64,000 bases of DNA from Heterodontus francisci (lineage: Eukaryota): assembly GCF_036365525.1 (NCBI RefSeq), contig NC_090409.1, forward strand, positions 39,194,437 to 39,258,436, in the 5' to 3' direction. This document shows positions 23,005 through 60,881 of this stretch, piece by piece. A program made the translations under genes and the position numbers. Positions within the stretch are counted from its first letter, which is position 1. The number at the start of each line of letters is the position of its first letter. Below the pieces are notes generated by a model that searched no databases, was not told where the DNA came from, and worked only from the letters and a program-made list of their open reading frames with translations.

Positions 23005-23068
23005 CTGAAACAGCAGCAACAGCATTTAGCAGCAGCAGCAGGAGGAGGAGTTTCTGTAAGTTGGGTCC
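23005..23068 (-). CDS. Gene B exon 2, signal peptide: GPNLQKLLLLLLLLNAVAAVS(G)
   Basis: ttttcttgttgcag acceptor and gtaagc donor; poly-Leu core with AVAAVS cleavage region; phase 0 to 1. Confidence 0.85.
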
Positions 23069-23142
23069 CTGCAACAAGAAAACACAGTTACCCCCCTTTA
23101 CCACAGTTTCTTGCTGCTCACGTCCATTTCTGAGCCGGGACA

Positions 23143-23600
23143 GGACACAGTCCATGGTCCCTCTCCCCATTACTGATCCCCCTCCCTCCTGGCTCTGAGA
23201 CACATTGAGACCGGGAGCAGCTCTGACACAGTCCATGGTCCCGCTCCCCATGACTGACCTCCCCCCCCTCCCTCCCAGCTCTCGAGACACATTGAGACCA
23301 GGAGCAGCCCTGACACAGTCCATGGTCCCGCTCCCCATTACTGACCCCCCTCCCTCTCTGCTCTGAGACACATTGAGACCAGGAGCAGCCCTGACACAGT
23401 CCATGGTCCCACTCCCCATTACTGACTCCCCTCCCTCCTCCCTCCCAGCTCTGAAACACATTGAGACCAGGAGCAGCCCTGACACAGTCCATGGTCCCTC
23501 TCCCCATTACTGACCCCCCTCCCTCCCAGCTCTGAGACACATTGAGACCAGGAGCAGCCCTGACACAGTCCATGGTCCCTCTCCCCATAACTGACCCCCG
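23143..23600. repeat. 81-bp VNTR in gene B intron 1 (about 5.5 units)
   Basis: Unit gtcagtaatggggagtgggaccatggactgtgtcagggctgctcccggtctcaatgtgtctcagagccgggagggaggggg. Confidence 0.92.
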
Positions 23601-23621
23601 GGTGTGAGACACTGACAATAC

Positions 23622-23642
23622 CTGCAGTGTTTTTCCATCCAT
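23622..23642 (-). CDS. Gene B exon 1 coding part: MDGKTLQ
   Basis: gcaATGG Kozak context; cag|gtattg donor; phase 0 matches exon 2; the same arrangement recurs in all leader cassettes. Confidence 0.7.
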
Positions 23643-24214
23643 TGCCCTGATCCTGGATTATCACAAAAACACTAAAAACCCTGCAACAGCTGTCCAGATG
23701 TAGCGGTAAACATTTGTGATGGAGACAAAAGCAAAATTGGGGGGTGGTGGGGGAAATCAGTCCCTGTCTCGATCCCTTATGGATCCCCATGGTCTGAAGT
23801 GAACAGTTTCCCGGGAGCCGACACTCGGATTGTTGTTTCACTCAAATCCCTTCCCGGGAAAAGCAGCTTTTAACACGGCTTTTCCTGACAGAGGCTGCAC
23901 CATTATTACACACTCCCCCCTCAGTGTGGGAATGGATCAGTCCAGACCATCCCTGAAACTGAAACATTGAGATCAGGTTTTTACAGAAATGTCTGAACAG
24001 GAAATGCTGTAAAACCTCAATTTGTAAAAACAGAAACAGAGTTTCACCCTTTCAGCTCCATTCTCCTCCTCCTGTGCTGTTTCTATTCTATTTTATTCTC
24101 TGACTGTTCCTCAGAACTGAATCCACATCTTCCAGGGTGTTTTCTTTCACTGAATTTGAGATCCAGCTGTGGTTCAGTTGGTAGCTCTCCAGGACTTGGG
24201 AACAAAAATCAAGC

Positions 24215-25040
24215 TTTATTTGAGGGTGGGTGCAGAGGGAGCCCCGCACTGCCGGAGGGCGCGGTGCAGAGGGAGCTGTCTGAGAAACGGGGAGGGGTGG
24301 GGGGGGGTGTTCTGGGTGGTCACTATCACATTGCTGTTTGTGGGATCTTGCTGTGCACACACTGACTGCTGCATTTCCTACATTACAACAGTCAATACAC
24401 TTCAGAAAAAGTATATCATTGGCTGGGAAGCATTTTCAGATGCCGGTGGTCGTGAAAAGCACGACAGAAATGCGAGACTTTTTTCTCCAGCCACATCAGC
24501 TCCATCAGTGAGAGCTCGAACCTCCCTCTCTGTTACATCTCCCAGACTTTACCCACTCAGCCCATCTGCTGCTGAAACCCTCATTCCTGCCTTTCTTACC
24601 TCCATACTCAATTATTCCAACCCTCTCTTGGCCTGAATGAGGCACCACATTGAGGATTGAACCTTACAAACGTTTACCTTCACTGTCAAAACTCACACAT
24701 GAAGAATGGATGTTTATGTGGGCTAACAGAAGGCTGCAGGCATCCACGTGTCAGACATGACTCAGTGGGTAACACTCTCACCTCAGTCAGAAGGCACTGC
24801 AGAACTGAGGGAATGCTGCACTGTCAGAGGTACTGTCTTTCAGGTGAGAGGTTAAACTGAGGGCCCTGTCTGCCCTCTGATGTGAAGGATCCCACAACCA
24901 CAAAGCCAGATCCTCCTGGTGTATTTGTCAATGTTTAGAATTTAACCAACACATAAAACAGTTTAGTGCAGACATTTATCACATTGTTATTTGTGGGAAC
25001 TTGCTGTGTGTAAATTGGTGAGAAAGACACTGTATAAATG
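24215..25040 (+). mobile_element. Deu-SINE-type (SacSINE1-like) fragments
   Basis: cattgctgtttgtgggatcttgctgtgc...tcctacattacaacag core shared with 12290-12480, 48170-48600 and 58995-59890. Family name is from recall. Confidence 0.55.
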
Positions 25041-26155
25041 GGAGAAACTGAAACTGGAATTTACCTTTCGGAGATACATTGAACTGTTGGTTGGGGCTCT
25101 CTCCTCATGTTTGACTGTCCCTGTGGCCTCAAGACACACGACTTTTAATGGAATCCATACTTCAGGATAAACTAGATCTTCCTCATTGTTGTGAGTGAGT
25201 TTACTTCAGTACCCAGGACACATTGATCACTCCATTTAGTTGCTGTTGTCCTTGTTTCAGTATCTGAGACTCATTGAATGTCCTCAAGGCTGTGGCCTTT
25301 TCACCTCTATTATAATCCCCACTTGTTATCTCTACCCCGGTGAGCAGAGGTGAGAATTCCAGTCTCTGAATACAGGGTTCACATCCAGCAGGAAACTGGT
25401 ACCCGATGGGAGCAGAGAGTCAACCCACCACCCATTGTATCTACCCAGACCCTCCTGGTAGGGCGTTGTTAGTCAGGATAAGGACCTGTCCATATAAAGA
25501 AAGAGTCTTCCTGATGGAGAACAATCTACTGGGTGTAAAAGCAGTGGAAATAATCAGCTGCCTCATTTTAAAATGATATATTAATTCCTTAGATGTGGGT
25601 GTCACTGGCAAGGCTGGTATTTATTGTCCATCCCGAGACGCCCCTTGTGAAGGTGTTGCTGGGTCTTCTTGAACCGTTTCAGTCCCGTGTGGTGAAGGTG
25701 CTCCCACGGTGCCGTTAGGGAGGGAGATCCAGGATTTTGATCCAGTGACGATGAAGGAACGGCCGATATTTCTCCAAGTTGGGACGGTGTGTCTGAGACT
25801 CGGAGGGGAACATGGAGGCGATGGTGTTCCCATGCTCCTGCTGCCCTTGTCCTTCTAGGGGAGGCTGGAGGTTGTGGGTTTGTGAGGTTTTATTGAAGAA
25901 TGTGGGACTGGGAACAGAAGAGAAAGAAGACTTGTTATCCTCCTCGTCCTGTCACCCTCCTCTAGGAAACCTCAATCCCAGACAATAAATTCATTCATTA
26001 AATAAAAAACACCTTTACAATAAATACAACTTCTTATTCCATTAAACATTTCCCCCAACAATTCCTTCTCGGAGCTTCCTTAATGTGATTTATCCTTCAC
26101 TAAAATAAACTTTCTGAAGTTGGCCATTCACTTTGACCTTTCACCTCCTCACACA
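24960..26155 (+). repeat. About 1.2-kb direct duplication, copy 2
   Basis: Matches 8320-9540, with an 18-bp deletion near 25110. Confidence 0.92.
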
Positions 26156-26179
26156 TATTTAAATTTCAACTGTTTTATC

Positions 26180-26650
26180 TTTGAACGGTTTCTGCTCGGG
26201 GCCGTGGCACCTGAGACAGCCGCCAATCAGGTGCCACAACGCCCTGTCACTCAGGATTCCCCGCCCAACCGACGGGCTGAGAAAACAGCCAGCCAATCAG
26301 GGAAAGGATGTGCGAGCTGCACTTCCGCCAATCGGTGCTTTCCGCAGATATGACGACACTGTAAAGCTGGATTGCTATTGGTCCCTGATGCCATTAGAAA
26401 CCGATAAACAAGGTTACGTGTTCAGCCGCTGATTGGCTGGTGGCTCGCCCAATGGCGGAGGATGAAGAAGGCGGGGGAAAATCAGCCGCCATTTTATGAC
26501 GCAGTCTGATTCACCGCCAAACTGTTAATTCCGGGAATTGTGAAACAAATGTTTGTTTGAGGTGATATTTCGGCGTCGATGTTATCCAGAGGAGATGCGT
26601 TTGCTCAGGATGCAGTGTGATCGGGAACACCGGGATTTTCAGGAGCAGCC
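26180..26650 (+). promoter_or_regulatory. CpG-rich promoter with multiple CCAAT boxes and a YY1-type motif, possible first exon ending gccg|gtaaca
   Basis: ccaatcag twice, ccaatcgg, gattgg, ccaatgg, gccgccatttt; inverted paralog at 46260-46700. Confidence 0.6.
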
Positions 26651-26780
26651 GGTAACAGCAGCTGAGGAACAAATGTCAGAAATGGATGTTTGTCTCCACA
26701 GAGCAGCTGGACATCGCTTTGAATCGTGTGTTTCCCATTGTAAACATATTGGTCACAATGTCCACCCCCAGTCTGTCATT

Positions 26781-29446
26781 AAAATTAAAGCAAATGACTG
26801 CAGATGCTGGAAATATAAAAAAAAAGGCTGGAAATACTCAGCAGGTCTGGCAGCGTCTGTGGAGAGAGAAACAGAGTTAATGTTTCAGCTCAGTGACCCT
26901 TCATCAGAACTGACAAATATTAGAAATGTGAAAGGTTCTCAGCAAGTAAAGTGGGGGTAGGGCAAGAGGTAACAAAGGAGGTCTCGATAGGACAAGGTCA
27001 CAGTGAGTAACTGACCAGAAGGTCATGGAGCAAAGGTAAACAATATGTTAATAGTGTGTTGAAAGACAAAGCATTAGTACAGATAGGGTGTTCATGGCCT
27101 GAAACTGAACAGCCACAAGCAAAACAATAAAAAAGTGGGTAAGCAAACTGAACAAACTAAGATAAAATAAAAACAAACAAAAAAGAACTAAAAATAAAAG
27201 TAAAATGGGGGGCCCGCTATGCTTTGAAGTTATTGAACTCAATGTTCAGTCCGGCAGGCTGCAGCGTGCCTAATCGGTAGATGAGATGCTGTTCCTCGAG
27301 CTTGCGTTGATGTTCACTGGAACACTGCAGCAATCCCAGGGCAGAGATGTGAGCACGAGAGCGGAGGGGGAGGGGAGTGTTGAAATGGCCAGCAACCGGA
27401 CGCTCGGGTACATGCTTTCGGACCAATTCTCCATTGCACTACCACCTCATCACCTATCCACGGCACCTTCCCCTGCAATTGCAGGAGGTGTAATACCTGC
27501 CCATTCAATTCCTCTCTCCTCACTATCCCAGGCCCCAAACACTCCTTTCAGGTGAAGCAGTGATTTACTTGTACTTCTTTCAATGTAGTATTCTGTATTA
27601 GCTGCTCACAATGTGGTCTCCTCTACATTGGGGAGACCAAGCACAGAGTGGGTGACCGCTTGGCTGAACACCTCCAATCAGTCCGCAAGCAGGACCCTGA
27701 GCTTCCGGTTGCTGGCCATTTCAACACTCCCCTTGCGCCCCCCCACCACCCCCGCCCTCATGCTTACATCTGTGTCCTGGGATTGCTGCAGTGTTCCAGT
27801 GAACATCAACGCAAGCTCGAGGAACAGCATCTCATTTCCCAATTAGGCACACTACAGCCTGCCGGACTGAACATTGAATTCAATAATTTCAGAGCATGAC
27901 GGGCCCCCATTTTACTTGTATTTTGTGTTACTTATTTCTTCAATTGTTCTGTTTTATTTTTATCTTAGTTTGTTCAGTTTGCTTACCCACTGTTTTTTTT
28001 CATGTTTGTACTTGCGGCTGTATAGTTTTCAGTTCATTAACACCCTCTCTGTACTAATGCTTTGTCTTTCAACACACCATTAATATACTGTTTGTCTTTG
28101 CTCCATGACCTTCTGGTCAGTTACTCTCTGACCTTGTCCCATCTACACCGCCTTTGTTATCTCTTGCCCCAACCCCACTTTACTTGCTTAAAAAGCTTCA
28201 CATTCCTGTAAGGACTCCATTCCATTCTCCCAGTTTCTCCGTCTCCGACACATCTGCTCTGATGATGCGACCTTCCATGATGGTGCTTCTGTTATGACCT
28301 TTTTCCTAAACCGAGGATTTCCCCCCCACTGTTGTTGACAGGGCCCTCAACCGTGTCCGGCCCATTTCCCGCACCGCTACCCTCACTCCTTCCCCTCCCT
28401 CCCAGATCCGTGATAGGGTTCCCCTTGTCCTCACTTTCCACCCCATCAGCCTCCATATCCAAAGGATCATCCTTCGCCATTTCCGCCACCTCCAGCGTGA
28501 TGCCACTACCAATGGCATCTTCCCCTCCCTTCCCCTGTCAGCATTCTGAAGGGATCGTTCCCTCCGTGACACCCTCGTCCACTCCTCCATTACCCCCACC
28601 ACCTCGTCCCCGTCCCATGGCACCGTCCCCTGCAATCGCAGAGGTGTAATACCTACCCGTTTACCTACTCTGTCCTCACTATCCCAGGCCCCAAACACTC
28701 CTTTCAAGTGAAGCAGCGATTTACTTGTACTTCTTTCAATGTAGTATACTGTATTCACTGCTCACAACGTGGTCTGCTCTGCATTGGGGAGACGAAACGC
28801 AGACTGGGTGACCGCTTTGCGGAATACCTCCACTCAGTCCGCAAGCAGGACCCAGAGCTTCCGGTTGCTTGCCATTTCAACACTCCCCCCTGCTCTCATC
28901 TCTATCCTGGGATTGCTGCAGTGTTCCAGTGAACATCAACGCAAGCTCGAAGAACAGCATCTCATTTTCCGATTAGGCACACGACAGTCTGCCGGACTGA
29001 ACATTAAGTTCAATAACTTCAAAGCATGGCCGGCCCCCCATTTTAATTTTATTTTTAGTTATTTTTACAATTTTTTTTCTTCTGTTTATTTCATTTCATC
29101 GTAGTTTATTCAGTTTGCTTACCCACTGTTGTTTTTTTCATGTTTGTTACTTGCTGCTGTTCAATATTTAATCCGTTAACACCTTATCTGTACTAATGCT
29201 TTGTCTTTCAACACACCATTAACAAATTGTTTGCCTTTGCTCCAAGACCTTTTGGTCAGCTGTGTGGCCTTATCCAATCTACACCTTCTCCTTTGTTACC
29301 TCTTACCCATCCCCACCTCACTTGCTTATAACCTTTGACATTTTGAATATTTGCTAGATCCGAAGAAGGGTCACTGACCAGAAACATTAACTCTGCTTCT
29401 CTTTCCACAGATGCTGCCAGACCTGCTGAGAATTTCTTGTTTTTAT
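26781..29446. mobile_element. Composite Penelope-like insertion (inverted tail plus partial tandem copies) with 14-bp TSD
   Basis: GIY-YIG endonuclease remnants (FTCTSFNVVYCIHCSQRGLLCIGETKRRLGDRFAE); cccagtctgtcatt at 26767-26780 and 29447-29460. Confidence 0.88.
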
Positions 29447-29707
29447 CCCAGTCTGTCATTGTTCTCCCAATGTGAGGTGGAGCTCAGGAGATGAATTCCT
29501 GATATAACTAACACGATTCCCCAGTAATATACACATTACTGATTTCAGTCCCAGACACCCAGACAAATGTTCTTTCCAGGAGACAGCTAACTGCAGTCTG
29601 TATAAATTCACAAGGTTAGCACCATCCAGGAAGATCAATCCTGATATGATCCATATCACCAGCAGCCCCGAGCTCTGCTGAAATGTGAGAGCAGTCACAG
29701 CGTTTAC

Positions 29708-29771
29708 CTGAAACAGCAGCAACAGCATTTAGCAGCAGCAGCAGGAGGAGGAGTTTCTGTAAATTGGGTCC
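29708..29771 (-). CDS. Orphan leader cassette 2, signal-peptide exon GPNLQKLLLLLLLLNAVAAVS (no own V exon)
   Basis: Intact acceptor, gtaaac donor and frame; homology to gene B intron 2 breaks near 29490. Confidence 0.55.
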
Positions 29772-29844
29772 CTGCAACAAGAAAACACAGTTACCCCCCC
29801 TTTACCACAGTTTCTTGCTGTTCATGTCCATTTCTGAGCCGGGA

Positions 29845-30780
29845 CAGGACACAGTCCATGGTCCCTCTCCCCATTACTGACCCCCCTCCCTCCCGGCTCT
29901 GAGACACATTGAGACCGAGAGCAGCCCTGACACAGTCCATGGTCCCTCTCCCCATTACTGACCCTCCTCCCTCCCGGCTCTGAGACACATTGAGACCGGG
30001 AGCAGCCCTGACACAGTCCATGGTCCCTCTCCCCATTACTGACCCCCCTCCCTCCCGGCTCTGAGACACATTGAGACCGGGAGCAGCCCTGACACAGTCC
30101 ATGGTCCCTCTCCCCATTACTGACCCCCCTCCCTCCCGGCTCTGAGACACATTGAGACCGGGAGCAGCCCTGACACAGTCCATGGTCCCACTCCCCATTA
30201 CTGACCCCCCTCCCTCCCGGCTCTGAGACACATTGAGACCGGGAGCAGCCCTGACACAGTCCATGGTCCCACTCCCCATTACTGACCCCCCTCCCTCCCG
30301 GCTCTGAGACACATTGAGACCGGGAGCAGCCCTGACACAGTCCATGGTCCCACTCCCCATTACTGACCCCCCTCCCTCCCGGCTCTGAGACACATTGAGA
30401 CCGGGAGCAGCCCTGACACAGTCCATGGTCCCTCTCCCCATTACTGACCCCCCTCCCTCCCGGCTCTGAGACACATTGAGACCGGGAGCAGCCCTGACAC
30501 AGTCCATGGTCCCACTCCCCATTACTGACCCCCCTCCCTCCCGGCTCTGAGACACATTGAGACCGGGAGCAGCCCTGACACAGTCCATGGTCCCTCTCCC
30601 CATTACTGACCCCCCTCCCTCCCGGCTCTGAGACACATTGAGACCGGGAGCAGCCCTGACACAGTCCATGGTCCCTCTCCCCATTACTGACCCCCCTCCC
30701 TCCCGGCTCTGAGACACATTGAGACCGGGAGCAGCCCTGACACAGTCCATGGTCCCTCTCCCCATTACTGACCCTCCCCC
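29845..30780. repeat. 81-bp VNTR, about 11.5 homogeneous units
   Basis: 27-aa periodic ORFs at 29791-30765. Confidence 0.95.
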
Positions 30781-30802
30781 GGGTGTGAGACACTGACAAT
30801 AC

Positions 30803-30930
30803 CTGCAGCTCCTTTCCCATGAGGAGATGGAGAAGAATCACTTCCTGCTCAGCCGCATGTTCAAGCCGGTCCTGGAGCATGTGACCCAGCGAGGGGCGGG
30901 GCCTGGGATTTCGGGGCGGGGCCAGGCGAT
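30803..30930 (-). promoter_or_regulatory. Leader cassette 2 exon 1 (MGKELQ, 30803-30820) with upstream GC boxes and an Ets-like caggaagtg
   Basis: cag|gtattg donor; two ggggcggggc at about 30892-30923. Confidence 0.55.
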
Positions 30931-31449
30931 AGGAGCGGCCACTATCTGCATCTGGGCCCCTGGTGTGGGGAGAGGCTGTTACTCTGAGGACAGACAGAGG
31001 GAGATCAGTCCCGGTACCTTTCCCCTCTCAGAGGGGATGAAATGAACAGCCGGCAGGGAATCAGCACTTGCTTGTTCTTTGACTCAAATCCCTTCAGACA
31101 GAGGCTGCACCATTATTCCACTCACTCACAAAACCCCCCTTCTCAGTGTGAAAATGGGTCAGTCCAGTCCCCCCGCCGCCATCTGAGTCACGTGACTGCT
31201 GAACCCAATCGGAATTTGACTTCAAATTAGACCGGAAATGATGTAAATTCTCAGACTTTGTCAAAACAGAAACAGAGTTTCACCCTTTCAGCTCCATTCT
31301 CCTCCTCCTGTGCTGTTTCTATTCTATTTTATTCTCTGACTGTTCCTCAGAACTGAATCCACATCTTCCAGGGTGTTTTCTTTCACTGAATTTGAGATCC
31401 AGCTGTGGTTCAGTTGGTAGCTCTCCAGGACTTGGGAACAAAAATCAAG

Positions 31450-32830: not shown

Positions 32831-32834
32831 ACAG

Positions 32835-35219: not shown

Positions 35220-35915
35220 ATGGATGGAAAAACACTGCAGGTACTGTCAGTGTCTCACACCCGGGGGGTCAGTAATGGGGAGCGGGACCATGGACTGTGT
35301 CAGGGCTGCTCCCGGTCTCAATGTGTCTCAGAGCCGGGAGGGAGGGGGGTCAGTAATGGGGAGTGGGACCATGGACTGCGTCAGGGCTGCTCCCGGTCTC
35401 AATGTGTCTCAGAGCCGGGAGGGAGGGGGGTCAGTAATGGGGAGTGGGACCATGGACTGTGTCAGGGCTGCTCCCGGTCTCAATGTGTCTCAGAGCCGGG
35501 AGGGAGGGGGGTCAGTAATGGGGAGAGGGACCATGGACTGTGTCAGGGCTGCTCCCGGTCTCAATGTGTCTCAGAGCCGGGAGGGAGGGGGGTCAGTAAT
35601 GGGGAGTGGGACCATGGACTGCGTCAGGGCTGCTCCCGGTCTCAATGTGTCTCAGAGCCGGGAGGGAGGGGGGTCAGTAATGGGGAGTGGGACCATGGAC
35701 TGTGTCAGGGCTGCTCCCGGTCTCAATGTGTCTCAGAGCCGGGAGGGAGGGGGGTCAGTAATGGGGAGTGGGACCATGGACTGTGTCAGGGCTGCTCCCG
35801 GTCTCAATGTGTCTCAGAGCCGGGAGGGAGGGGAGTCAGTAATGGGGAGTGGGACCATGGACTGTGTCAGGGCTGCTCCCGGTCTCAATGTGTTTCAGAG
35901 CCGGGAGGGAGGGGT
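35220..35915 (+). pseudogene. Orphan leader cassette 3: exon 1 MDGKTLQ (35220-35240) plus about 8 units of the 81-bp VNTR, truncated by CR1
   Basis: Same exon 1 and donor as genes B and C; no exon 2 follows. Confidence 0.7.
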
Positions 35916-39329: not shown

Positions 39330-39870
39330 CGCCCCCCAGACTCAACATTCTGGGGGTTACCAATGACCAGAAACTGAATTGGACCAACCACACAAATACC
39401 GTGGCGACAAGAGCAGGCTTGGAATTCTGTGGCGAGTAACTCACCTCCTGACTCCCCCAAAGCCTGTCTACCATCTACAAGGCATAAGTCAGGAGTGTGA
39501 TGGAATACTCTCCACTTGCCTGGATGGGTGCAGCTCCAACAACACTCAAGAAGCTCGACACCATCCAAAACAAAGCAGCCCGTTTGATTGGCACTCCATC
39601 CACAAACATTCACTCCCTCCACCACCGACGCACAGTGGCAGCAGTGTGTACCATCTGCAAGATGCACTGCAGCAATGCACCAAGGCTCCTTAGACAGCAC
39701 CTTCCAAACTCACGATTTCTACCAATTAGAAGGACGAGGGCAGCAGATGCATGGGAACACCACCACCTGCAAGTTCCCCTCCAAGCCAAACACCATCTCA
39801 ACTTGGAACAATATCGCTGTTCCTTCACTGTCGCTGGGTCAAAATCCTGCAACTCCCTTCCGAACACTAC
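39330..39870 (+). mobile_element. LINE 3' fragment (same family as 55610-57550)
   Basis: MEYSPLAWMGAAPTTLKKLDTIQNKAARLI. Confidence 0.85.
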
Positions 39871-40033: not shown

Positions 40034-40345
40034 ATGGGTGGAAAAGCACTGCAGGTACTGTCACTGTCTCACAACCGGGGGGTCAGTAATGGGGAGCGAG
40101 ACCATGGGCTGTGTCAGGGCTGCTCCCGGTCCCAATGTGTCTCAGAGCCGGGAAAGAGGGGTGGGGGTCAGTAATGGGGAGCGGGACCATGGGCTGTGTC
40201 CTGGCTCACGTTGTGAATTTATACAGACTGCAGTTAGCTGTCTCCTACAAAGAACACTTGTCTGGGTGTCTGGGACTGAAATCAGTAATGTGTATATTAC
40301 TGGGGAATAGTCTTCATTATATCAGGAATTCATCTCCTGCGCTTC
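40034..40345 (+). pseudogene. Orphan leader cassette 4: exon 1 MGGKALQ (40034-40054), about 1.5 VNTR units, exon 2 deleted
   Basis: VNTR joins directly to intron-2 sequence (ttgtgaatttatacagactgc). Confidence 0.7.
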
Positions 40346-46250: not shown

Positions 46251-46259
46251 ACCGTTTAA

Positions 46260-47000
46260 CTGTCTCAATTCCCACTCCAGTAAATGCTCAGTGTGTAAAT
46301 CCCGGATCACACTGGATCCTGAGCGGCCGCATCTCCTCTGGATAACATCCAGGCTGAAATATCACCTCAAACAGACATTTGTGAATCAGACTGCGCGCTA
46401 AAATGGCCGCCCCTCCTCCCCCCCCGGCTTTCTTCCTCCTCCACCATTGGGCGAAGTGCCGGCCAATCAGCAGCTGTCCTCAGACCCCCCGTGGCAGGGA
46501 AGGTCACATGGGACCAGGGACCAATGGAAAATCCGGCCTTGCAGTGTCGTCACAGATACACGAAGCACTGACTGGCGGAGCTGCACCTCGGGCTGCCTTT
46601 CTGATTGGCTGGGAAGCCTGAGTGACAGGCCGGGCGCCGCGTATTTCCAGCCTTGCTTGTTTTTTTTCACTGTGAAGGGACTCCTGACAACGCAGCGGCC
46701 TGCTGACGTCCACATGCGCAAACGGTCTCCTGCACTGAGGTGATGCGCATGTGCAGCTTGCCTTGCCGGTGCATGGGCAGACAATCTTTCTCCCTCTATC
46801 TCTCTGTCCGGAGGTGCGGTCCTTCTGATGAAACTTTAAAGAGCGCAATGTCAAACATGTCCGTAATGTGCTGAAGTTGTTCTTCTGTGATAAATTGAGC
46901 AGCGCCATCTTTAATCCTGGCAATGCCTGAACGTCAATCAATGACGTTTGGTGGATGAGTCTGTATTTGCGCATGTGCTAGTACAGCGCCACCTAGTGTG
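46260..47000 (-). promoter_or_regulatory. CpG promoter paralog (CCAAT, aaaatggc, NRF1-like tgcgcatgtgc) plus a CTCF-like motif at about 46984-46998
   Basis: Inverted homology to 26450-26640; cagcgccacctagtg. Confidence 0.55.
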
Positions 47001-47417
47001 ATGGGCAGCGACACCCACATTCAGTCATGTGAATTCCTGACACAATGAAGACTATTCCCCAGTAATATACACATTACTGATTTCAGTCCCAGACACCCAG
47101 ACAAATGTTCTTCCCAGGAGACAGCTAACTGCAGTCTGTATAAATTTACAAGGTTAGCCTGTCTGAACTTTGCAGGGAGGAAAGCAGGAATACAGAAATT
47201 TCACATGATGTAGGATGGAGCTTTGCATCTATCAGAGAGGGAGCAGCAATTTCATCTGAATGAAGGAAGTTCCTGTTCAGTAGCTCCCTGGCTGCATCTT
47301 AAAGAGCAGTGAACTACCATTGGATTTGGGACTGAGGATTACAGACTCACCCAGGCTTCAACACTGAACCAACTAATCCGAGCTCTGCTGAAATGTGAGA
47401 GCAGTCACAGCGTTTAC

Positions 47418-47646
47418 CTGAAACAGCAGCAACAGCATTTAGCAGCAGCAGCAGGAGGAGGAGTTTCTGGAAGTTGGGTCCCTGCAACAAGAAAACACAG
47501 TTACCCCCCTTTACCACCGTTTCTTGCTGCTCATGTCCATTACTGAGCCGGGACAGGACACAGTCCATGGTCCCTCTCCCCATTACTGACCCTCCCGCCC
47601 CCCGGGTGTGAGACACTGACAATACCTGCAGCGCATTTCCAACCAT
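47418..47646 (-). CDS. Orphan leader cassette 5: exon 1 MVGNALQ (47626-47646) and exon 2 GPNFQKLLLLLLLLNAVAAVS (47418-47481)
   Basis: Intact splice sites and frame; only half a VNTR unit in intron 1; no adjacent V exon. Confidence 0.55.
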
Positions 47647-47714
47647 TTTCTGACAGAAGCTTCATCATTATCACAAACCCTCCTCCCTTCTCAGTGTAGG
47701 AATGGTCCAGTCAT

Positions 47715-48015
47715 TAAAAATGGGGCTCTGATGAGGAAGTAGAGACCTCCTCACAGACTTGTGCAAGCAGAATGGACGGATGTTCAGCTGTTAGTAATAC
47801 CACCTCAGTATCGCCAGAAACTGCTAAGGTTAGCACATGAAATTCCTATAGTGAGACATGTGGGGATCTGGAAGATCAAATCACGTATAAATCAACATTA
47901 TTACTGGCCAGATTGTGGGAAAACTGCATCCTGCCATAAAACCAGCACCTCTAATTCCCATCCCAATTATTGGAAAAACATTTAGCAGGGTGTTGGTAGA
48001 CTGTGTAGGACCTTT
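47715..48015 (+). mobile_element. Gypsy integrase N-terminal fragment (family of 6470-6800)
   Basis: LLRLAHEIP..HVGIWK and PIPIIGKTFSRVLVDCVGPL. Confidence 0.8.
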
Positions 48016-48695
48016 ACAAACACATTCCTTATGGCAGTTCCCTTGGCACCAGCATGGCATGGACAGTCCTGCCTATACCCCTGTCCCTTACAGTGTGAGG
48101 GACTGAAACCTCACCCAACATCACAGGTCACCTGTGGTTCAGTGGGGAGCTCGAGTCCAAAGGTCGTGGGTTTACAGACTCACTCCAGAGACCTGAGCAC
48201 ATAATTCAGACTGAAATTCCCAGTCCCGAGGGAGCACCGCAGTGTCGGATGTGCTGTACAGAGGGAGTGCTGCATTGTCAAAGGTGCTATCTTTCAGATG
48301 AGAAGGTAAATCGCGGCCCCGCCTGCTCTCTTTGGTAAAAACACCCATTGCCAATAGTAAAAAAAAGTAGAGGCCCTCTTCAACCATCAATCAACATCAC
48401 TAAAAACAGATTATCTGGGTCATTATTTCATTGCTGTTTAGGGCAGTTGGCTGTGTGCAAATTGGCTGCTGCATTTCCCACTTTAAAACAGTGAGATTTG
48501 GGCCAAAAAAATGTTCATTTCAAAAGTACTTATTGCTGTAAAACGTGATGGGGCGTCCTGTGGCTGTGAAAGGCGCAACATAAATGCAAGTTTTTCGAAG
48601 TTGCTCCAAGGTGACCCTGCCATACCGCAGTGTGATCATGTGGTGGCGCTGTTGCCCCGTTTGTAGTTGAGTTGGACAGCGACGCCATCTAGTGG

Positions 48696-51600
48696 CTGAA
48701 CCCCTTTAATACAGGAACCAGACTCTGGGTCAATCCGACTGAACCCCTTTAATACAGGAACCAGACTCTGGGTCAATCCGACTGAACCCCTTTAATACGG
48801 GAACCGGACTCTGGGTCGATCCGACTGAACCCCTTTAATACAGGAACCAGACTATGGGTCGATCCGACTGAACCCCTTTAATACAGGAACCGGACTCTGG
48901 GTCGATCCGACTGAACCCCTTTAATACAGGAACCGGACTCTGGGTCAATCCGACTGAACCCCTTTAATACGGGAACCGGACTCTGGGTCGACCAGGCTGA
49001 ACCCCTTTAATACAGGAACCGGACTCTGGGTCGATCCGACTGAACCCCTTTAATACAGGAACCAGACTCTGGGTCAATCTGACTGAACCCCTTGAATACA
49101 GGAACCAGACTCTGGGTCGATCCGACTGAACCCCTTTAATACGGGAACCGGACTCTGGGTCGATCCGACTGAACCCCTTTAATACAGGAACCAGACTCTG
49201 GGTCGATCCGACTGAACCCCTTTAATACAGGAACCGGACTCTGGGTCGATCCGACTGAACCCCTTTAATACAGGAACCGGACTCTGGGTCAATCCGACTG
49301 AACCCCTTTAATACAGGAACCGGACTCTGGGTCAATCCGATTGAACCCCTTTAATACAGGAACCGGACTCTGGGTCAATCCGACTGAACCCCTTTAATAC
49401 AGGAACCAGACTCTGGGTCAATCCGACTGAACCCCTTTAATACAGGAACCGGACTCTGGGTCAATCCGACTGAACCCCTTTAATACAGGAACCGGACTCT
49501 GGGTCGATCCGACTGAACCCCTTTAATACAGGAACCAGACTCTGGGTCGATCCGACTGAACCCCTTTAATACAGGAACCAGACTCTGGGTCAATCCGACT
49601 GAACCCCTTTAATACAGGAACCGGACTCTGGGTCAATCCGACTGAACCCCTTTAATACAGGAACCAGACTCTGGGTCAATCCGACTGAACCCCTTTAATA
49701 CAGGAACCAGACTCTGGGTCGATCCGACTGAACCCCTTTAATACAGGAACCGGACTCTGGGTCGATCCGACTGAACCCCTTTAATACAGGAACCGGACTC
49801 TGGGTCGATCCGACTGAACCCCTTTAATACAGGAACCAGACTCTGGGTCAATCCGACTGAACCCCTTTAATACAGGAACCGGACTCTGGGTCGATCCGAC
49901 TGAACCCCTTTAATACAGGAACCGGACTCTGGGTCGATCCGACTGAACCCCTTTAATACGGGAACCAGACTCTGGGTCAATCCGACTGAACCCCTTTAAT
50001 ACAGGAACCGGACTCTGGGTCGATCCGACTGAACCCCTTTAATACGGGAACCGGACTCTGGGTCGATCCGACTGAACCCCTTTAATACAGGAACCAGACT
50101 CTGGGTCGATCCGACTGAACCCCTTTAATACGGGAACCAGACTCTGGGTCAATCCGACTGAACCCCTTTAATACAGGAACCGGACTCTGGGTCGATCCGA
50201 CTGAATCCCTTTAATACGGGAACCGGACTCTGGGTCGATCCGACTGAACCCCTTTAATACAGGAACCGGACTCTGGGTCAATCCGACTGAACCCCTTTAA
50301 TACAGGAACCAGACTCTGGGTCGATCCGACTGAACCCCTTTAATACAGGAACCGGACTCTGGGTCGATCCGACTGAACCCCTTTAATACAGGAACCAGAC
50401 GCTGGGTCGATCCGACTGAACCCCTTTAATACAGGAACCGGACTCTGGGTCGATCCGACTGAACCCCTTTAATACAGGAACCGGACTCTGGGTCGATCCG
50501 ACTGAACCCCTTTAATACAGGAACCGGACTCTGGGTCGATCCGACTGAACCTCTTTAATACAGGAACCGGACTCTGGGTCGATCCGACTGAACCCCTTTA
50601 ATACGGGAACCGGACTCTGGGTCGATCGGACTGAACCCCTTTAATACAGGAACCGGACTCTGGGTCGATCCGACTGAACCCCTTTAATACAGGAACCGGA
50701 CTCTGGGTCGATCCGACTGAACCCCTTTAATACGGGAACCGGACTCTGGGTCGATCCGACTGAACCCCTTTAATACAGGAACCAGACTCTGGGTCGATCC
50801 GACTGAACCCCTTTAATACGGGAACCGGACTCTGCGTCGATCCGACTGAACCCCTTTAATACAGGAACCGGACTCTGGGTCGATTCGACTGAACCCCTTT
50901 AATACAGGAACCAGACTCTGCGGTCGCTCCGACTGAACCCCTTTAATACGGGAACCGGACTCTGGGTCGATCCGACTGAACCCCTTTAATACAGGAACCG
51001 GACTCTGGGTCGATCCGACTGAACCCCTTTAATACAGGAACCGGACTCTGGGTCGATCCGACTGAACCCCTTTAATACAGGAACCGGACTCTGGGTCGAT
51101 CCGACTGAACCCCTTTAATACGGGAACCGGACTCTGGGTCGATCCGACTGAACCCCTTTAATACAGGAACCAGACTCTGGGTCGATCCGACTGAACCCCT
51201 TTAATACAGGAACCGGACTCTGGGTCGATCCGACTGAACCCCTTTAATACAGGAACCGGACTCTGGGTCAATCCGACTGAACCCCTTTAATACAGGAACC
51301 GGACTCTGGGTCAATCCGACTGAACCCCTTTAATACAGGAACCGGACTCTGGGTCAATCCGACTGAACCCCTTTAATACAGGAACCAGACTCTGGGTCAA
51401 TCCGACTGAACCCCTTTAATACAGGAACCGGACTCTGGGTCAATCCGACTGAACCCCTTTAATACAGGAACCGGACTCTGGGTCGATCCGACTGAACCCC
51501 TTTAATACAGGAACCAGACTCTGGGTCGATCCGACTGAACCCCTTTAATACAGGAACCAGACTCTGGGTCGATCCGACTGAACCCCTTTAATACAGGAAC

Positions 51601-54600
51601 CGGACTCTGGGTCAATCCGACTGAACCCCTTTAATACAGGAACCAGACTCTGGGTCAATCCGACTGAACCCCTTTAATACAGGAACCAGACTCTGGGTCG
51701 ATCCGACTGAACCCCTTTAATACAGGAACCGGACTCTGGGTCGATCCGACTGAACCCCTTTAATACAGGAACCGGACTCTGGGTCGATCCGACTGAACCC
51801 CTTTAATACAGGAACCAGACTCTGGCTCAATCCGACTGAACCCCTTTAATACAGGAACCGGACTCTGGGTCGATCCGACTGAACCCCTTTAATACAGGAA
51901 CCGGACTCTGGGTCGATCCGACTGAACCCCTTTAATACGGGAACCAGACTCTGGGTCAATCCGACTGAACCCCTTTAATACAGGAACCGGACTCTGGGTC
52001 GATCCGACTGAACCCCTTTAATACGGGAACCGGACTCTGGGTCGATCCGACTGAACCCCTTTAATACAGGAACCAGACTCTGGGTCGATCCGACTGAACC
52101 CCTTTAATACGGGAACCAGACTCTGGGTCAATCCGACTGAACCCCTTTAATACAGGAACCGGACTCTGGGTCGATCCGACTGAATCCCTTTAATACGGGA
52201 ACCGGACTCTGGGTCGATCCGACTGAACCCCTTTAATACAGGAACCGGACTCTGGGTCAATCCGACTGAACCCCTTTAATACAGGAACCAGACTCTGGGT
52301 CGATCCGACTGAACCCCTTTAATACAGGAACCGGACTCTGGGTCGATCCGACTGAACCCCTTTAATACAGGAACCAGACGCTGGGTCGATCCGACTGAAC
52401 CCCTTTAATACAGGAACCGGACTCTGGGTCGATCCGACTGAACCCCTTTAATACAGGAACCGGACACTGGGTCGATCCGACTGAACCCCTTTAATACAGG
52501 AACCGGACTCTGGGTCGATCCGACTGAACCTCTTTAATACAGGAACCGGACTCTGGGTCGATCCGACTGAACCCCTTTAATACGGGAACCGGACTCTGGG
52601 TCGATCGGACTGAACCCCTTTAATACAGGAACCGGACTCTGGGTCGATCCGACTGAACCCCTTTAATACAGGAACCGGACTCTGGGTCGATCCGACTGAA
52701 CCCCTTTAATACGGGAACCGGACTCTGGGTCGATCCGACTGAACCCCTTTAATACAGGAACCAGACTCTGGGTCGATCCGACTGAACCCCTTTAATACGG
52801 GAACCGGACTCTGCGTCGATCCGACTGAACCCCTTTAATACAGGAACCGGACTCTGGGTCGATTCGACTGAACCCCTTTAATACAGGAACCAGACTCTGC
52901 GGTCGCTCTGACTGAACCCCTTTAATACGGGAACCGGACTCTGGGTCGATCCGACTGAACCCCTTTAATACAGGAACCGGACTCTGGGTCGATCCGACTG
53001 AACCCCTTTAATACAGGAACCGGACTCTGGGTCGATCCGACTGAACCCCTTTAATACAGGAACCGGACTCTGGGTCGATCCGACTGAACCCCTTTAATAC
53101 AGGAACCGGACTCTGGGTCGATGCGACTGAACCCCTTTAATACAGGAACCGGACTCTGTGTCAATCAGACTGAACCCCTTTAATACAGGAACCAGACTCT
53201 GCGGTTGCTCCGACTGAACCCCTTTAATACAGGAACCAGACTCTGTGTCAATCAGACTGAACCCCTTTAATACAGGAACCAGACTCTGCGGTCGCTCCGA
53301 CTGAACCCCTTTAATACGGGAACCGGACTCTGGGTCGATCCGAGTGAATCCCTTTAATACAGGAACCGGACTCTGGGTCGCTCCGACTGAACCCCTTTAA
53401 TACAGGAACCGGACTCTGGGTCGATCCGACTGAACCCCTTTAATACAGGAACCGGACTCTGTGTCAATCAGACTGAACCCCTTTAATACAGGAACCAGAC
53501 TCTGCGGTCGCTCCGACTGAACCCCTTTAATACAGGAACCGGACTCTGGGTCGATCCGACTGAACCCCTTTAATACAGGAACCAGACTCTGGGTCAATCA
53601 GACTGAACCCCTATAATACAGGAACCGGACTCCAGGTCGATCCGGCTGAACCCCTTTAATACAGGAACCGGACTCTGGGTCGATCCGACTGAACCCCTTT
53701 AATACTGGAACTGGACTCTGGGTCAATCCGACTGAACCCCTTTAATACGGGAACCGGACACTGGGTCGATCCGACTGAATCCCTTTAATACAGGAACCGG
53801 ACTCTGGGTCGATCCGACTGAACCCCTTTAATACGGGAACCGGACTCTGGGTCGATCCGACTGAACCCCTTTAATACAGGAACCGGACTCTGTGTCAATC
53901 AGACTGAACCCCTTTAATACAGGAACCAGACTCTGCGGTCGCTCCGACTGAACCCCTTTAATACGGGAACCGGACTCTGGGTCGATCCGAGTGAATCCCT
54001 TTAATACAGGAACCGGACTCTGGGTCGCTCCGACTGAACCCCTTTAATACAGGAACCGGACTCTGGGTCGATCCGACTGAACCCCTTTAATACAGGAACC
54101 GGACTCTGTGTCAATCAGACTGAACCCCTTTAATACAGGAACCAGACTCTGCGGTCGCTCCGACTGAACCCCTTTAATACAGGAACCGGACTCTGGGTCG
54201 ATCCGACTGAACCCCTTTAATACAGGAACCAGACTCTGGGTCAATCAGACTGAACCCCTTTAATACAGGAACCGGACTCCAGGTCGATCCGGCTGAACCC
54301 CTTTAATACAGGAACCGGACTCTGGGTCGATCCGACTGAACCCCTTTAATACAGGAACCGGACTCTGGGTCGATCCGACTGAACCCCTTTAATACGGGAA
54401 CCGGACTCTGGGTCGATCCGACTGAACCCCTTTAATACAGGAACCAGACTCTGGGTCAATCAGACTGAACCCCTTTAATACAGGAACCAGACTCTGCGGT
54501 CGCTCCGACTGAATCCCTTTAATACAGGAACCGGACTCTGGGTCGATCCGACTGAACCCCTTTAATACGGGAACCGGACTCTGGGTCGCTCCGACTGAAA

Positions 54601-55530
54601 CCCTTTAATACAGGAACAGGACTCTGGGTCGATCTGACTGAACCCCTTTAATACAGGAACCAGACTCTGGGTCGATCCGACAGAACCCCTTTAATACAGG
54701 AACCGGACTCTGGGTCGATCCGACTGAACCCCTTTAATACAGGAACCGGACTCTGGGTCGATCCGACTGAACCCCTTTAATGCAGGAACCGGACTCTGGG
54801 TCGATCCGACTGAACCCCTTTAATACGGGAACCGGACTCTGGGTCGATCCGACTGAACCCCTTTAATACAGGAACCGGACTCTGGGTCGATCCGACTGAA
54901 CCCCTTGAATACAGGAACCGGACTCTGGGTCGATCAGGCTGAACCCCTTTAATACAGGAACCGGACTCTGGGTCGATCCGACTGAACCCCTTTAATACAG
55001 GAACAGGACTCTGGGTCGATCCGACTGAACCCCTTTAATACAGGAACAGGACTCTGGGTCGATCTGACTGAACCCCTTTAATACAGGAACCAGACTCTTG
55101 GTCGATCCGACTGAACCCCTTTAATACAGGAACCAGACTCTGGGTCGATCCGACTGAACCCCTTTAATACAGGAACCGGACTCTGGGTCGATCCGACTGA
55201 ACCCCTTTAATACAGGAACCGGACTCTGGGTCGATCCGACTGAACCCCTTTAATACAGGAACCAGACTCTGGGTCGATCCGACTGAACCCCTTTAATACG
55301 GGAACCCGACTCTGGGTCGATCTGACTGAACCCCTTTAATACAGGAACCGGACTCTGGGTCGATCCGACTGAACCCCTTTAATACAGGAACCGGACTCTG
55401 GGTCGATCCGACTGAACCCCTTTAATACAGGAACCGGACTCTGGGTCGATCCGACTGAACCCCTTTAATACAGGAACCTTACTCGGTGTCGATCTGACTG
55501 AACCCCTTTAATACAGGAACCAGACTCTGG
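48696..55530. repeat. 43-bp satellite array, about 159 units (gactgaacccctttaatacaggaaccggactctgggtcgatcc)
   Basis: Uninterrupted tandem array with internal block duplications. Confidence 0.98.
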
Positions 55531-55609
55531 GTGGTATTGACTGGATGGCTGTGTGGAGAGCTGACTTGGACTGGATGGGCTGAATGGCCTCCTGTGCCTT
55601 CTATGACTC

Positions 55610-57689: not shown

Positions 57690-58500
57690 TCTCCTATAAA
57701 GTCCTTTAATCATCGTAAACATCTCAATTAGATCTCTCTTAATCTTCATTATTCAAGCCTCTTCTGTGCAACCTCTCCACATAATTTAACCCTTTTCATC
57801 CCATTACCATTCTGGTAAATCTGTGCTGCACCCCCTCCAAGGCCAATATATCCTTCCTGAGGGGCGGTGCCCAGAACTGAACACAGTGACTCCAGATGGG
57901 GCCAGACCAGTGATTTATATAATATAACTTCTACCTCTTTATATTCCAGCCCTCTCGAGATAGAGGCCAACATTCCATTCACCTTTTAAATTATTTCTTG
58001 TAACTGTCCACCCAATATATAATGTTGTAAAACAGCCTGTAGCATTTCCTAGACAGTGAGGTGGAGGGAGAAGAGTCAGGAGTGTTAACTGAAAACAAGA
58101 TCAGAGAGATACATTGGGAAGAAGCCTTCGAAGGATGGTTGAGGTGAAGCCAGGCAGGGAAAGGGGGTCAGGCAGAAAGTCTCAGAGTGTGGGGTCAATA
58201 TGGTTTAAAGAGGAGTTTACATAGGATATACGACACAAACACAGGCCATTCGGCCCAACCAGTCCATGCTAGTGTTTATGCTCCACCCAAGCCTCCTCCC
58301 GTCTTTCCTTATCTAAATCTATCATTGTAACCCTCTGTTCCCTTACTCCTCATGTGTTTATCCAGCTTCCCCTTAAATGAATCAATACTATTCACCTCAA
58401 CCACTCCCTGTGGGAGCGAGTTCCACATTCTCACCACTCTCTGGGGAAAGAAGTTTCTCCTGAATTCCCGACTGGATTTCTGGGTGACTATATAGGATTA
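57690..58500 (-). mobile_element. CR1 3' fragments
   Basis: RGLEYKEVEVILYKSLVWPHLE; CR1-type tail at 58230-58490. Confidence 0.7.
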
Positions 58501-58994
58501 CATAGGAATTATGGCACAAGGAGGGAAAGGAAGGAGGTGCATGTGGAGGAGGAGAGAACTGGAAGATGAAAGGCCTTGACTCAAACACAGGACTAAAGGA
58601 GATTCCAAGTGGAAGAGTGAGAGGGGAAACACAATGAGGACGAGGAATTGGAAATCAATGGGTTGGTACATCAGGGCCAATGATGATTGGTGAGGACATG
58701 GGTGATAAGGAACAGGGCAGACAGCAGTTACTGAAGGTTTGTGTGAGTTGTGATGGATAGAGGGGATCAATCAGGAGGCCAGTAAGGACAGTATTGGAGT
58801 GGGAACATAATAAAGGCTGGGATAAGATTGACTTTGGAAAACAAACAGTTCCAAAATAATGAACAGGCTTGGAGTTGTTTGCACTTGTATTTTCAGTTTG
58901 TTGTAACCGACCTCTGTCTGCCCAGTTTTTACTTTGGAGATGATCCAGTGTCTCATTCCTGTAAACCTTGAGGTCAGTTAGTGTTTAATTGTTG

Positions 58995-59890
58995 GTGAAT
59001 AAAAAGAACGTGCATTTCTATAGCGCCTTTCAGGATGGCACAAAGTGCTTCACAGCCAATGAAATACTTTTCTTGAAATGTGGTCACTGTTGTAATGTAG
59101 GAAACGAGGCAGCCAATTCCTGCACAGCAAGATCCCACAAACAGCAATGTGAAAATGACCCAGATTGTTTGTTTTAGTGATGTCGGTTGAGGGATAAATA
59201 TTGTCCCCAGGACACCGGGGAGAACTCCCCCCCACCGCTCTTCTTCCAAATAGTGGCCGTGGGATCTTTTACACCCACCTGAGAGGGCAGACGGGGGCCT
59301 CGGTTTAATGTCTCATCTGAAAGATGGCACCTCCGGCAGTGCAGCACTCCCTCAGTACTGACCGTCCAACAGTGCAGCACCCCCTCTGTACAGACCCTCC
59401 GACAGTGCAGCACTCCCTCAGTACAGACCCTCCGACAGTGCAGCACTCTCTCAGTACTGACCCTCCGACAGTGCAGCACCCCCTCAGTACTGACCCTCTG
59501 ACAGTGCAGCACCCCCTCAGTCCTGACTCTCCGACAGTGCAGCACCCCCTCAGTACTGACCCTCCGACAGTGCAGCACCCCCTCAGTACAGACCCTCCAA
59601 CAGTGCAGCACTCTCTCAGTACTGACCCTCCGACAGTGCAGCACCCCCTCAGTCCTGACTCTCCGACAGTGCGGCACTCCCTGCGACAGTGCAGCACTCC
59701 CTCAGTACTGACCCTCCGACAGTGCAGCACTCCCTCAGTATTGACCCTCCGACAGTGCGGGGCTCCCTCTGCACCGACCCCCCGGCAGTGCGGGGCTCCC
59801 TCTGCACCGACCCCCCGACAGTGCGGGTCTCCCTCTGCACCGACCCCTCCGACAGTGCGGGGCTCCCTCTGCACCCACCCTCAAATAAAG
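58995..59890 (-). mobile_element. Deu-SINE-type element with an internal 33-bp tandem expansion (about 59335-59870)
   Basis: Unit ccctccgacagtgcagcactccctcagtactga; the paralog at 24215-24480 lacks the expansion. Confidence 0.75.
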
Positions 59891-60460
59891 CTTGATTTTT
59901 GTGCCCAAGTCCTGGAGAGCTACCAACTGAACCACAGCTGGATCTCAAATTCAGTGAAAGAAAACACCCTGGAAGATGTGGATTCAGTTCTGAGGAACAG
60001 TCAGAGAATAAAATAGAATAGAAACAGCACAGGGGGAGGAGAATGGAGCTGAAAGGGTTAAACTCTGTTTCTGTTTTGACAAATTGAGGTTTTGCAGCAT
60101 TTCCTGTTCAGACATTTCTGTAAAAACCTGATCTCAATGTTTCAGTTTCAGGGATGGTCTGGACTGATCCATTCCCACACTGAGGGGGGAGTGTGTAATA
60201 ATGGTGCAGCCTCTGTCAGGAAAAGCCGTGTTAAAAGCTGCTTTTCCCGGGAAGGGATTTGAGTGAAACAACAATCCGAGTGTCGGCCACCGGGAAACTG
60301 TTCACTTCAGACCATGGGGATCCATAAGGGATCGAGACAGGGACTGATTTCCCCCACCACCCCACATTTTGCTTTTGTCTCCATCACAACTGTTTTCCGC
60401 TACATCTGAACAGCTGTTTCAGGGTTTTTAGTGTTTTTGTGATAATCCAGGATCGGGGCA

Positions 60461-60481
60461 ATGGATGGGAAAACACTGCAG
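60461..60481 (+). CDS. Gene C exon 1: MDGKTLQ
   Basis: ATG with cag|gtactg donor; paralog of gene B exon 1. Confidence 0.7.
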
Positions 60482-60826
60482 GTACTGTCAGTGTCTCACA
60501 CCCGGGGAGAGGGAGGGAGATGTGGGGGAAAGTTTCCCTCCCCAAGGATTCGCCTCTTTATTGTTTATCGCCCTCGAAACAGGAGGAGAATTTGTTCCAT
60601 TTCGGGGCTTTGTGTTTCTGACCCTGAGGCAGGGTCTCGTTTATAAAAGGAGAAATGTCAGACATTGGAGATGGAGCGAGAGAAACTGTGTTTAAACTGA
60701 AAATAAACACCTAGCTGTTAATCTTCACCCGGGGGTGGGGAACACAGTGACACAGCCCGGTTCAGAAATGGACATGAGCAGCAAGAAACTGTGGTAAAGG
60801 GGGGTAACTGTGTTTTCTTGTTGCAG

Positions 60827-60881
60827 GGACCCAACTTCCAGAAACTCCTCCTCCTGCTGCTGCTGCTAAATGCTGTTGCAG
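60827..60881 (+). CDS. Gene C exon 2, signal peptide: GPNFQKLLLLLLLLNAVA(G)
   Basis: ttgcag acceptor and gtaagc donor; in-frame 9-nt deletion relative to gene B. Confidence 0.85.

Follow-up and report, generated by a model that had tools for sequence, protein, structure and literature searches.

Does a gene with intact copies of its own leader exon lying upstream start at one of them, at several, or only at its own? The question is raised by a 64,000-nucleotide (nt) stretch of the horn shark genome (Heterodontus francisci NC_090409.1, 39194437-39258436 of the forward strand), referred to here as the window and used for the numbering of all coordinates. It falls in a B7-like V-set gene cluster which spans roughly 480 kb, with genes on both strands, and it contains the two-V gene B (exon 1, exon 2, V1, 39-nt hinge, V2, transmembrane (TM) exon and tail, in that order) on the minus strand, the one-V gene C on the plus strand, and six copies of exon 1 (Table 1). 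The minus-strand copies are named by their donors, 23622 (gene B), 30803 and 47626; the plus-strand copies have their ATGs at 35220, 40034 and 60461 and donors at 35240, 40054 and 60481 (gene C). A preliminary description took these leaders for a divergent array from which one promoter is chosen. That interpretation is partly supported, the locus reading as alternative first exons together with debris in a birth-and-death cluster. With moderate confidence we regard the cassettes as 5' fragments of duplicated B7-like V-set genes, the same-strand upstream leaders being spliced as alternative first exons and 47626, 40054 and probably 35240 being unused.

Probable alternative starts of gene B

The region analysed was 594 kb (100 kb before the window and 430 kb after it; coordinates above 64000 continue the window numbering). 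Splicing was read from assembled contigs of bulk runs. Seven runs in which the gene is present were guessed to be RNA, none being recorded as such, and their contigs were taken as RNA because spliced CT..AC joints suggest so. These contigs (31-mer) may derive from any paralogous copy at least 93% alike, and presence can be read from them but absence cannot. The first comparison covered positions 18400-29840 in four runs of one sample (15 of 92 joints listed), and the second positions 39700-48200, at a likeness of 97, in three runs of one sample and one run of another organism (all 10 joints listed); 30803 and 35240 lie outside both intervals. The pattern that defines alternative first exons, two upstream exons joined to one acceptor, was found in the first comparison, the joints 23067-23621 and 23067-25064 both being present in all four runs. 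Donor 25065, which the preliminary description had missed, is the best supported of the alternative starts.

The annotation consisted of 45 distinct H. francisci RefSeq proteins of the family, whose leaders were mapped to the 594-kb region. Gene B is started by RefSeq at 23622, at 25065 (XP_067874625-628, four accessions), at 30803 (XP_067874621.1) and at 95501. The leader of XP_067874621.1 maps only to 30803, and the protein ends in the V2 of this window. In all four two-V gene B isoforms compared the leaders differ and the mature 323 amino acids are identical. Leaders of the 30803 type start six of the 45 proteins, including models of each of the three two-V gene copies; models of the third copy take either the upstream exon 2 (seven leucines, unique to 342575) or the gene's own. 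Exon-1-only copies elsewhere in the cluster also open proteins (MIEALTIEKGFQ and MDGKVLQ start six and three, respectively), and the leaders MVGNALQ (47626) and MGGKALQ (40054) start none of the 45. As 35240 and 60481 encode the same peptide (MDGKTLQ), RefSeq proteins cannot separate them. The gene C protein, two accessions with one sequence, could hide a start at 35240 but shows none.

It is likely that gene B starts at 23622, at the older exon ending at 25065, or at 30803, the last of these being likely an alternative first exon on the evidence of automated annotation. Likely unused leftovers are 47626 and 40054, and 35240 is probably another. The earlier claim that the orphan leaders serve as alternative promoters survives for 30803, in the RefSeq models, and is not supported for 47626 and 40054, neither of which starts an annotated protein; 40054 has in addition lost its exon 2. 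Alternative isoforms as such are already known, being present in the RefSeq models. Partial duplication and unequal crossing-over have likely stacked extra 5' ends upstream of a gene; any that has a functional promoter, and meets no better acceptor on the way, would become an alternative first exon (25065 as seen in family-level contigs, 30803 as taken from annotation), and the remainder would decay. Such starts would change the tissue, timing or amount of one identical cell-surface protein, because only the cleaved leader differs. If this is right, 5' partial duplications can add promoters and leave the protein unchanged, and a gene structure is obtained for a shark-expanded B7-like family which automated annotation names inconsistently.

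Several points weigh against this reading. No joint at 21869 (exon 2 to V1) was among the 15 of 92 joints listed, and 30803 is taken as a start from automated RefSeq models, known here through their proteins. Several RefSeq models (P0054, P0059, P0060 and P0069) join exons 60-100 kb apart across other genes, and misplacement of reads among paralogues is therefore likely in part. The contigs represent a single sample, their being RNA is a guess and any close paralogue may be their source, and the RefSeq annotation may rest on the same kind of RNA. Finally, GT is kept in all 36 exon-1 copies of the cluster compared with its loss in 5 of the 16 copies of E0, the exon with donor 25065; more exon-1 copies could be under selection, but the copies are not independent. 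In the second comparison neither a joint 47626-47481 nor one from 40054 to an exon 2 was among the 10, cover upstream of 47626 was scant, and the result was not counted as evidence. Because the exon 2 copies agree fully over their last 55 and 52 nt, the junctions 29708-21869 and 47418-21869 are indistinguishable from 23005-21869 in 31-mer contigs.

Two further RefSeq models, XP_067874619 and 620, have the V of the gene at 87504 spliced into V1 (21869) and V2 of gene B, giving three-V proteins over about 70 kb. They represent either read-through or a mis-join between paralogues.

Copy number, integrity and origin of the cassettes

The 594-kb region holds 22 V exons in 19 gene bodies, together with 36 exon-1, 25 exon-2 and 16 E0 copies. 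Leader copies with no V of their own comprise six cassettes of exons 1 and 2 and 11 copies of exon 1 only. The pattern thus recurs across the 19 genes, and the earlier count of six cassettes for two genes is therefore incomplete, an effect of the window. Large blocks of the cluster are mostly 97-99.9% identical, and the 19 genes are recently duplicated. The two-V gene is present three times, each time with a 30803-type cassette upstream, and cassettes of the 47626, 40054 and 35240 types are found in two of the three two-V blocks; the third copy of the block is without the two plus-strand orphans. The paralogous copies of 35240 and 40054, at 352209 and 357266, have no plus-strand exon 2 within about 90 kb.

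As first described, all six exon-1 copies of the window have an ATG, an open frame and a CAG/GT donor, the minus-strand orphans keep intact phase-1 signal exons (29771-29708 and 47481-47418), and the plus-strand orphans, 35240 and 40054, end in phase 0 with no exon 2 of their own. Homology among the cassettes is far beyond chance. Since all copies of exon 1 end in phase 0, and those of exon 2 hardly differ from one another, upstream leaders can splice interchangeably. Each orphan had also been said to have different upstream DNA. This holds close by, the 160 nt that precede each orphan's last 40 nt differing by 22-28% from the nearest gene-linked copy, but farther upstream 30803 has a 222-nt block in common with gene B (96%).

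The intact ATGs and donors are weak evidence of function at 1-3% divergence, and in very young duplicates such as these an intact ATG and splice sites say little on function. The probability that all four orphans of the window are intact was 0.36 at 2%, 0.22 at 3% and 0.08 at 5% divergence in a neutral simulation. Compared with the modal copy, orphan exon 2 sequences show 4 differences in 381 nt and gene-linked ones 9 in 1207; exon 2 and its flanks are equally similar (0.6-3.3%), and a selection test on the exon was hence uninformative. Exon 1 is more diverged in 30803 and 47626 (9 and 6 of the last 40 nt, respectively), and these two are therefore older or have been shielded from conversion. 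In the cluster as a whole, the usual ATG has been lost from four of the 36 exon-1 copies, in each of which another ATG lies in frame upstream.

The ends of the cassettes look like products of rearrangement, with deletions, repeat insertions and truncations. Intron 2 of the 29771 cassette has an internal deletion and breaks off some 330 nt short of the place of the V acceptor. The deletion that removed exon 2 from 40054 has a junction in common with the 29771 cassette, and 40054 is a deletion relic; 47626 is a likely leftover with its exon 2 intact. The 35240 cassette ends within an 81-nt array. No degenerate V exons were found by blastn beside the orphans.

An out-of-frame ATG lies 19 nt before the leader ATG at 35201 and 40015 (plus strand) and in many gene-linked exon-1 copies, where it would open an overlapping upstream open reading frame (ORF); there is none at 23622 and 60481.

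The exon ending at 25065

E0, or exon X, has both an acceptor and a donor. It accepts splicing from 29708 (25907-29708 in one of the four runs) and may be internal in some transcripts; upstream exon 2 joined to it in this way encodes the signal peptide and 16 codons before a stop, and such transcripts would read nothing more. A joint 23658-25065 with non-canonical ends was present in two of the four runs. The CpG-rich stretch just upstream is, by its composition, likely a promoter. Among the 16 copies of E0 in the cluster, 11 have the GT and 10 both GT and ATG. A second copy, at 8424 (minus strand; MYLQK, with its GT kept), precedes the next gene of that strand, which lies beyond the window, and leaders of the MYLQK type start two of the 45 RefSeq proteins.

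When E0 was translated, matches to annotated N-termini were obtained in Mustelus (E 2e-5) and in Carcharodon (E 3e-5 and 4e-5), in three different frames, and the exon is therefore older than its reading frame. When 15 foreign N-termini were compared with the window, three of Mustelus (P0088, P0102 and P0104) and two of Carcharodon (P0093 and P0004) matched the 25065 exon; one other matched SINE-like repeats and the rest had no convincing match. An E0-like 5' exon is thus annotated in two other shark orders, and one Mustelus model runs from E0 through exon 1 to exon 2. From these matches and that model, the two-start arrangement (25065 and 23622) is likely ancestral in these sharks, and E0 has likely been kept as a regulatory 5' exon. 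If so, an upstream exon would be common to three shark orders without conservation of its reading frame. The annotated homologues of Carcharodon, Mustelus and Scyliorhinus start with an MDGKELQ-like exon 1, so that 30803 (MGKELQ) keeps the older GKELQ.

Alternative explanations

The rival that survives best, though we think it unlikely, is that all four orphans are debris, with only 25065 and 23622 productive and the 30803 isoforms representing leaky transcripts or mis-joins between paralogues. It accommodates the simulated neutral retention of all four (0.08-0.36 at 2-5% divergence), the deletions and repeat insertions at cassette ends and the implausibly long joins of the RefSeq models, as well as the sole RNA junction seen from an orphan exon 2, which leads to exon X and a stop after 16 codons. 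What it accounts for badly is the 30803-type leader, which occurs in all three two-V copies and starts models of each, including two for the 163990 copy; in addition, 30803 has GC boxes and keeps the GKELQ motif of exon 1 in other sharks.

A broader idea, to which we give only a slim chance, is that sharks diversify the expression and not the sequence of B7-like ligands by means of an interchangeable library of promoters with leaders: with every phase-0 leader able to join every signal exon downstream of it, recombination would stack unrelated promoters before each gene, and a cell-type-specific or stochastic pick would be made from them. Such a scheme would invert the protocadherin design.

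Very improbable, in our judgement, is an action of the cassettes by transcription, in which transcripts reading through from 30803, by way of exon 2 and exon X, would prime downstream promoters or dampen them, by analogy with the distal Ly49 promoter Pro1. The junction 29708-25907 (one of four runs) yields a short ORF with 14 ATGs after it in exon X, and in one paralogous block modules of X, exon 1 and exon 2 occur in a threefold stack before one V gene; but the junction was in one contig of one run with an ambiguous source copy, contigs are silent on start and strand, and the RefSeq models put 30803 in coding transcripts.

Least credible of all is the model of the preliminary description, a divergent leader array with one promoter chosen per cell in the style of protocadherins or variegated natural killer (NK) receptors: the cassettes are intact with different upstream DNA, the annotation gives gene B and other genes of the cluster more than one start, and the CCAAT-rich element occurs in both orientations with its inverted copy (46302-46612) at the start of a spliced transcript, but the ectodomain would stay unchanged, CTCF-like sites and inhibitory tail motifs give no support (see below), the plus-strand pair lies apart from its partner gene in the paralogous copy, and 47626 and 40054 start no annotated protein.

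Comparison with known systems

The variable exons of clustered protocadherins encode a signal, six ectodomain repeats and a TM segment, and are accompanied by CSE/eCBS CTCF sites (PMC7811963). As in those clusters, tandem first exons with their own upstream DNA are joined to shared exons (PMC7811963). Unlike them, the horn shark locus has a constant ectodomain, and the analogy fails: the cassettes encode 5-7 leader residues of a protein that is the same when mature, no variable first exon encodes an ectodomain and TM segment, and in place of one constant exon set the two strands carry 19 separate gene bodies. No enrichment of CTCF-like sites was seen, 4 of the 36 exon-1 copies having one nearby with about 5 expected (consensus with at most one mismatch, -1500 to +300 around each exon 1).

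The switches of Ly49 and KIR genes are bidirectional and probabilistic (PMC4222648). The shark cluster is like them in encoding immune surface proteins and in having a putative distal promoter that lies several kb upstream of the main promoter (PMC4222648), and unlike them in its tails, where no immunoreceptor tyrosine-based inhibitory motif (ITIM) was matched in the 43 TM-bearing proteins of the 45 (two are without TM).

Clusters of multiple variable first exons include UGT1 and GCNT2 and, further, PLEC1, NOS1 and GR (PMC1885805). Several first exons leading to common downstream exons, and birth and death of first exons, are features in common (PMC1885805). In UGT1, however, the variable exon is the whole substrate-binding domain (PMC1885805), whereas in the shark no more than 5-12 leader residues vary at gene-proximal ATGs, and what serves as the 'constant' part belongs to a set of 19 paralogous gene bodies.

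The closest parallel is the chicken BG family (B7/butyrophilin-like), in which the 5' end (promoter and 5' untranslated region) goes with the expression pattern (PMC4046983). It too is a fast expanding and contracting V-TM cluster of the B7 family with hybrids formed by unequal crossing-over or deletion (PMC4046983). As described there, each BG hybrid is a complete gene with a single 5' end (PMC4046983), whereas the shark has several 5' ends stacked per gene body, genes on both strands and persisting fragments without a gene body. The shark arrangement looks like ordinary alternative-promoter use and not like a choice system of the protocadherin type. No paper on this horn shark cluster was found in a literature search largely without subscription journals.

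Family identity and features of the window

The V exons encode V-set domains (Pfam PF07686, E 5e-14 for V1 of gene B), and the closest solved structures to V1 in a PDB search were CD276 (B7-H3; E 2e-17) and VTCN1 (B7-H4; E 2e-16). The RefSeq names point the same way, H. francisci proteins identical to V1 being called 'CD276 antigen homolog' or 'MOG-like' and the family also 'VTCN1-like'. A B7-like N-terminal V-set, a signal peptide and a single TM segment, all features of the extended B7 family, are present. Unlike CD276 and VTCN1, the shark family has 19 copies of V-hinge-V-TM or V-TM architecture, and no C-type domain was found in its proteins.

The feature list of the preliminary description was incomplete (Table 1); it lacked the hinge exon, the exon with donor 25065 and the 3' end of a third gene (1556-3039, plus strand), the leader and V of which lie before the window. 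Positions 1-4023 and 13906-17914 form a 92% inverted duplication carrying the TM and tail exons of the third gene and gene B.

Table 1. Position of leader cassettes and gene exons in the window
Feature	Position	Strand	Remarks
Upstream exon 1 (MGKELQ)	30803..30820	-	two GC boxes upstream; only map position of the RefSeq XP_067874621.1 leader
Upstream exon 2 copy, intact	29708..29771	-	joint 29708 to 25907, 1/4 runs
Orphan exon 1 (MVGNALQ), CpG-poor upstream	47626..47646	-	0/45 RefSeq proteins
Orphan exon 2 copy, intact	47418..47481	-	homology to intron 2 ends at 47030
Orphan exon 1 (MDGKTLQ)	35220..35240	+	followed by 8 copies of 81-nt intron unit, no exon 2
Orphan exon 1 (MGGKALQ)	40034..40054	+	passes exon-2 deletion into intron-2 sequence 40204-40355; 0/45 RefSeq proteins
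Exon E0/X	25065..25907	-	acceptor 25907, donor 25065; in-frame ATG 25079 (MYLRK) 15 nt before donor; joint 23067-25064 CT..AC, 4/4 runs of one sample
CpG-rich, CCAAT-rich stretch just upstream of E0/X	26200..26600		CpG observed/expected 0.89; 6 CCAAT matches in 400 nt
Gene B exon 1 (MDGKTLQ), phase-0 donor	23622..23642	-	joint 23067-23621 CT..AC, 4/4 runs of one sample; RefSeq XP_067874622.1
Gene B exon 2, hydrophobic signal peptide, phase 0 to 1	23005..23068	-	
Gene B V1 exon, V-set	21546..21869	-	Pfam PF07686, PDB match
Gene B hinge exon, 39 nt, V1-V2	20182..20220	-	joints 20220-21546 (3/4 runs), 19519-20182 (1/4); in RefSeq proteins
Gene B V2 exon	19193..19519	-	
Gene B TM exon	16242..16347	-	
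Gene B cytoplasmic exon (coding part)	14906..15080	-	no tyrosine
Gene C exon 1 (MDGKTLQ)	60461..60481	+	
Gene C exon 2, 55 nt, phase 1	60827..60881	+	
Gene C V exon	62016..62348	+	TM and tail beyond window, 64383-66485
Gene C hinge exon	63061..63099	+	RefSeq protein (label P0018)

A spliced minus-strand transcript, 46331-46193 to 43356-41346 with a CT..AC intron of 2836 nt, was present in all three runs of one sample and absent in the fourth run. It starts in the inverted homologue (46302-46612) of the 26200-26600 CCAAT element, sits between 600-nt direct repeats of 85% identity (40370-40978 and 44775-45366), and is antisense to the proposed path from 40054 to gene C. Its opening ORF of 159 codons (43345-42869) has a signal-peptide-like start, and the frames downstream are broken. 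The ORF gave no Pfam match and no exact record, and the six frames around it one sub-threshold match. By its anatomy the transcript is possibly a decayed retroelement envelope-like gene under a host promoter.

Between the orphan block and gene C lies a CpG-rich satellite of 6.8 kb (48696-55532; 159 copies of 43 nt), with a CTCF-like site at its edge (48695) and a 12-kb copy at 366026-377984. Elsewhere in the cluster, at 163990-195400 (L020-L024), three successive modules, each of exon X, exon 1 and exon 2, precede a single two-V gene, which stands head to head with a plus-strand gene at 196184. The long ORFs of the 594-kb region look mostly to be of the long interspersed element type, reverse transcriptase or endonuclease-like as judged by eye; no zinc-finger arrays and no useful synteny marker were found among them.

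Insertion of the cassettes by a transposon was rejected, the inverted ends of a dispersed element that bears an exon 1 occurring nowhere in the 594 kb (at most one mismatch). The element itself, about 600-700 nt long, carries between short inverted ends a sequence of roughly 70% identity to the promoter, exon 1 and intron start of the 30803 type (window 30780-30990) (loci L054-L060 and L064-L068, on contigs C1, C4, C12, C13, C15, C19, C20, C27 and C32). At least 47 of the 50 matches listed lie outside the cluster, some being two pieces of one copy. Target duplications of 8 nt were seen among the 12 loci examined, exact at L059 and L060 and with one mismatch at L065. It is likely a non-autonomous hAT-type element which has captured an immune-gene promoter and could donate it elsewhere.

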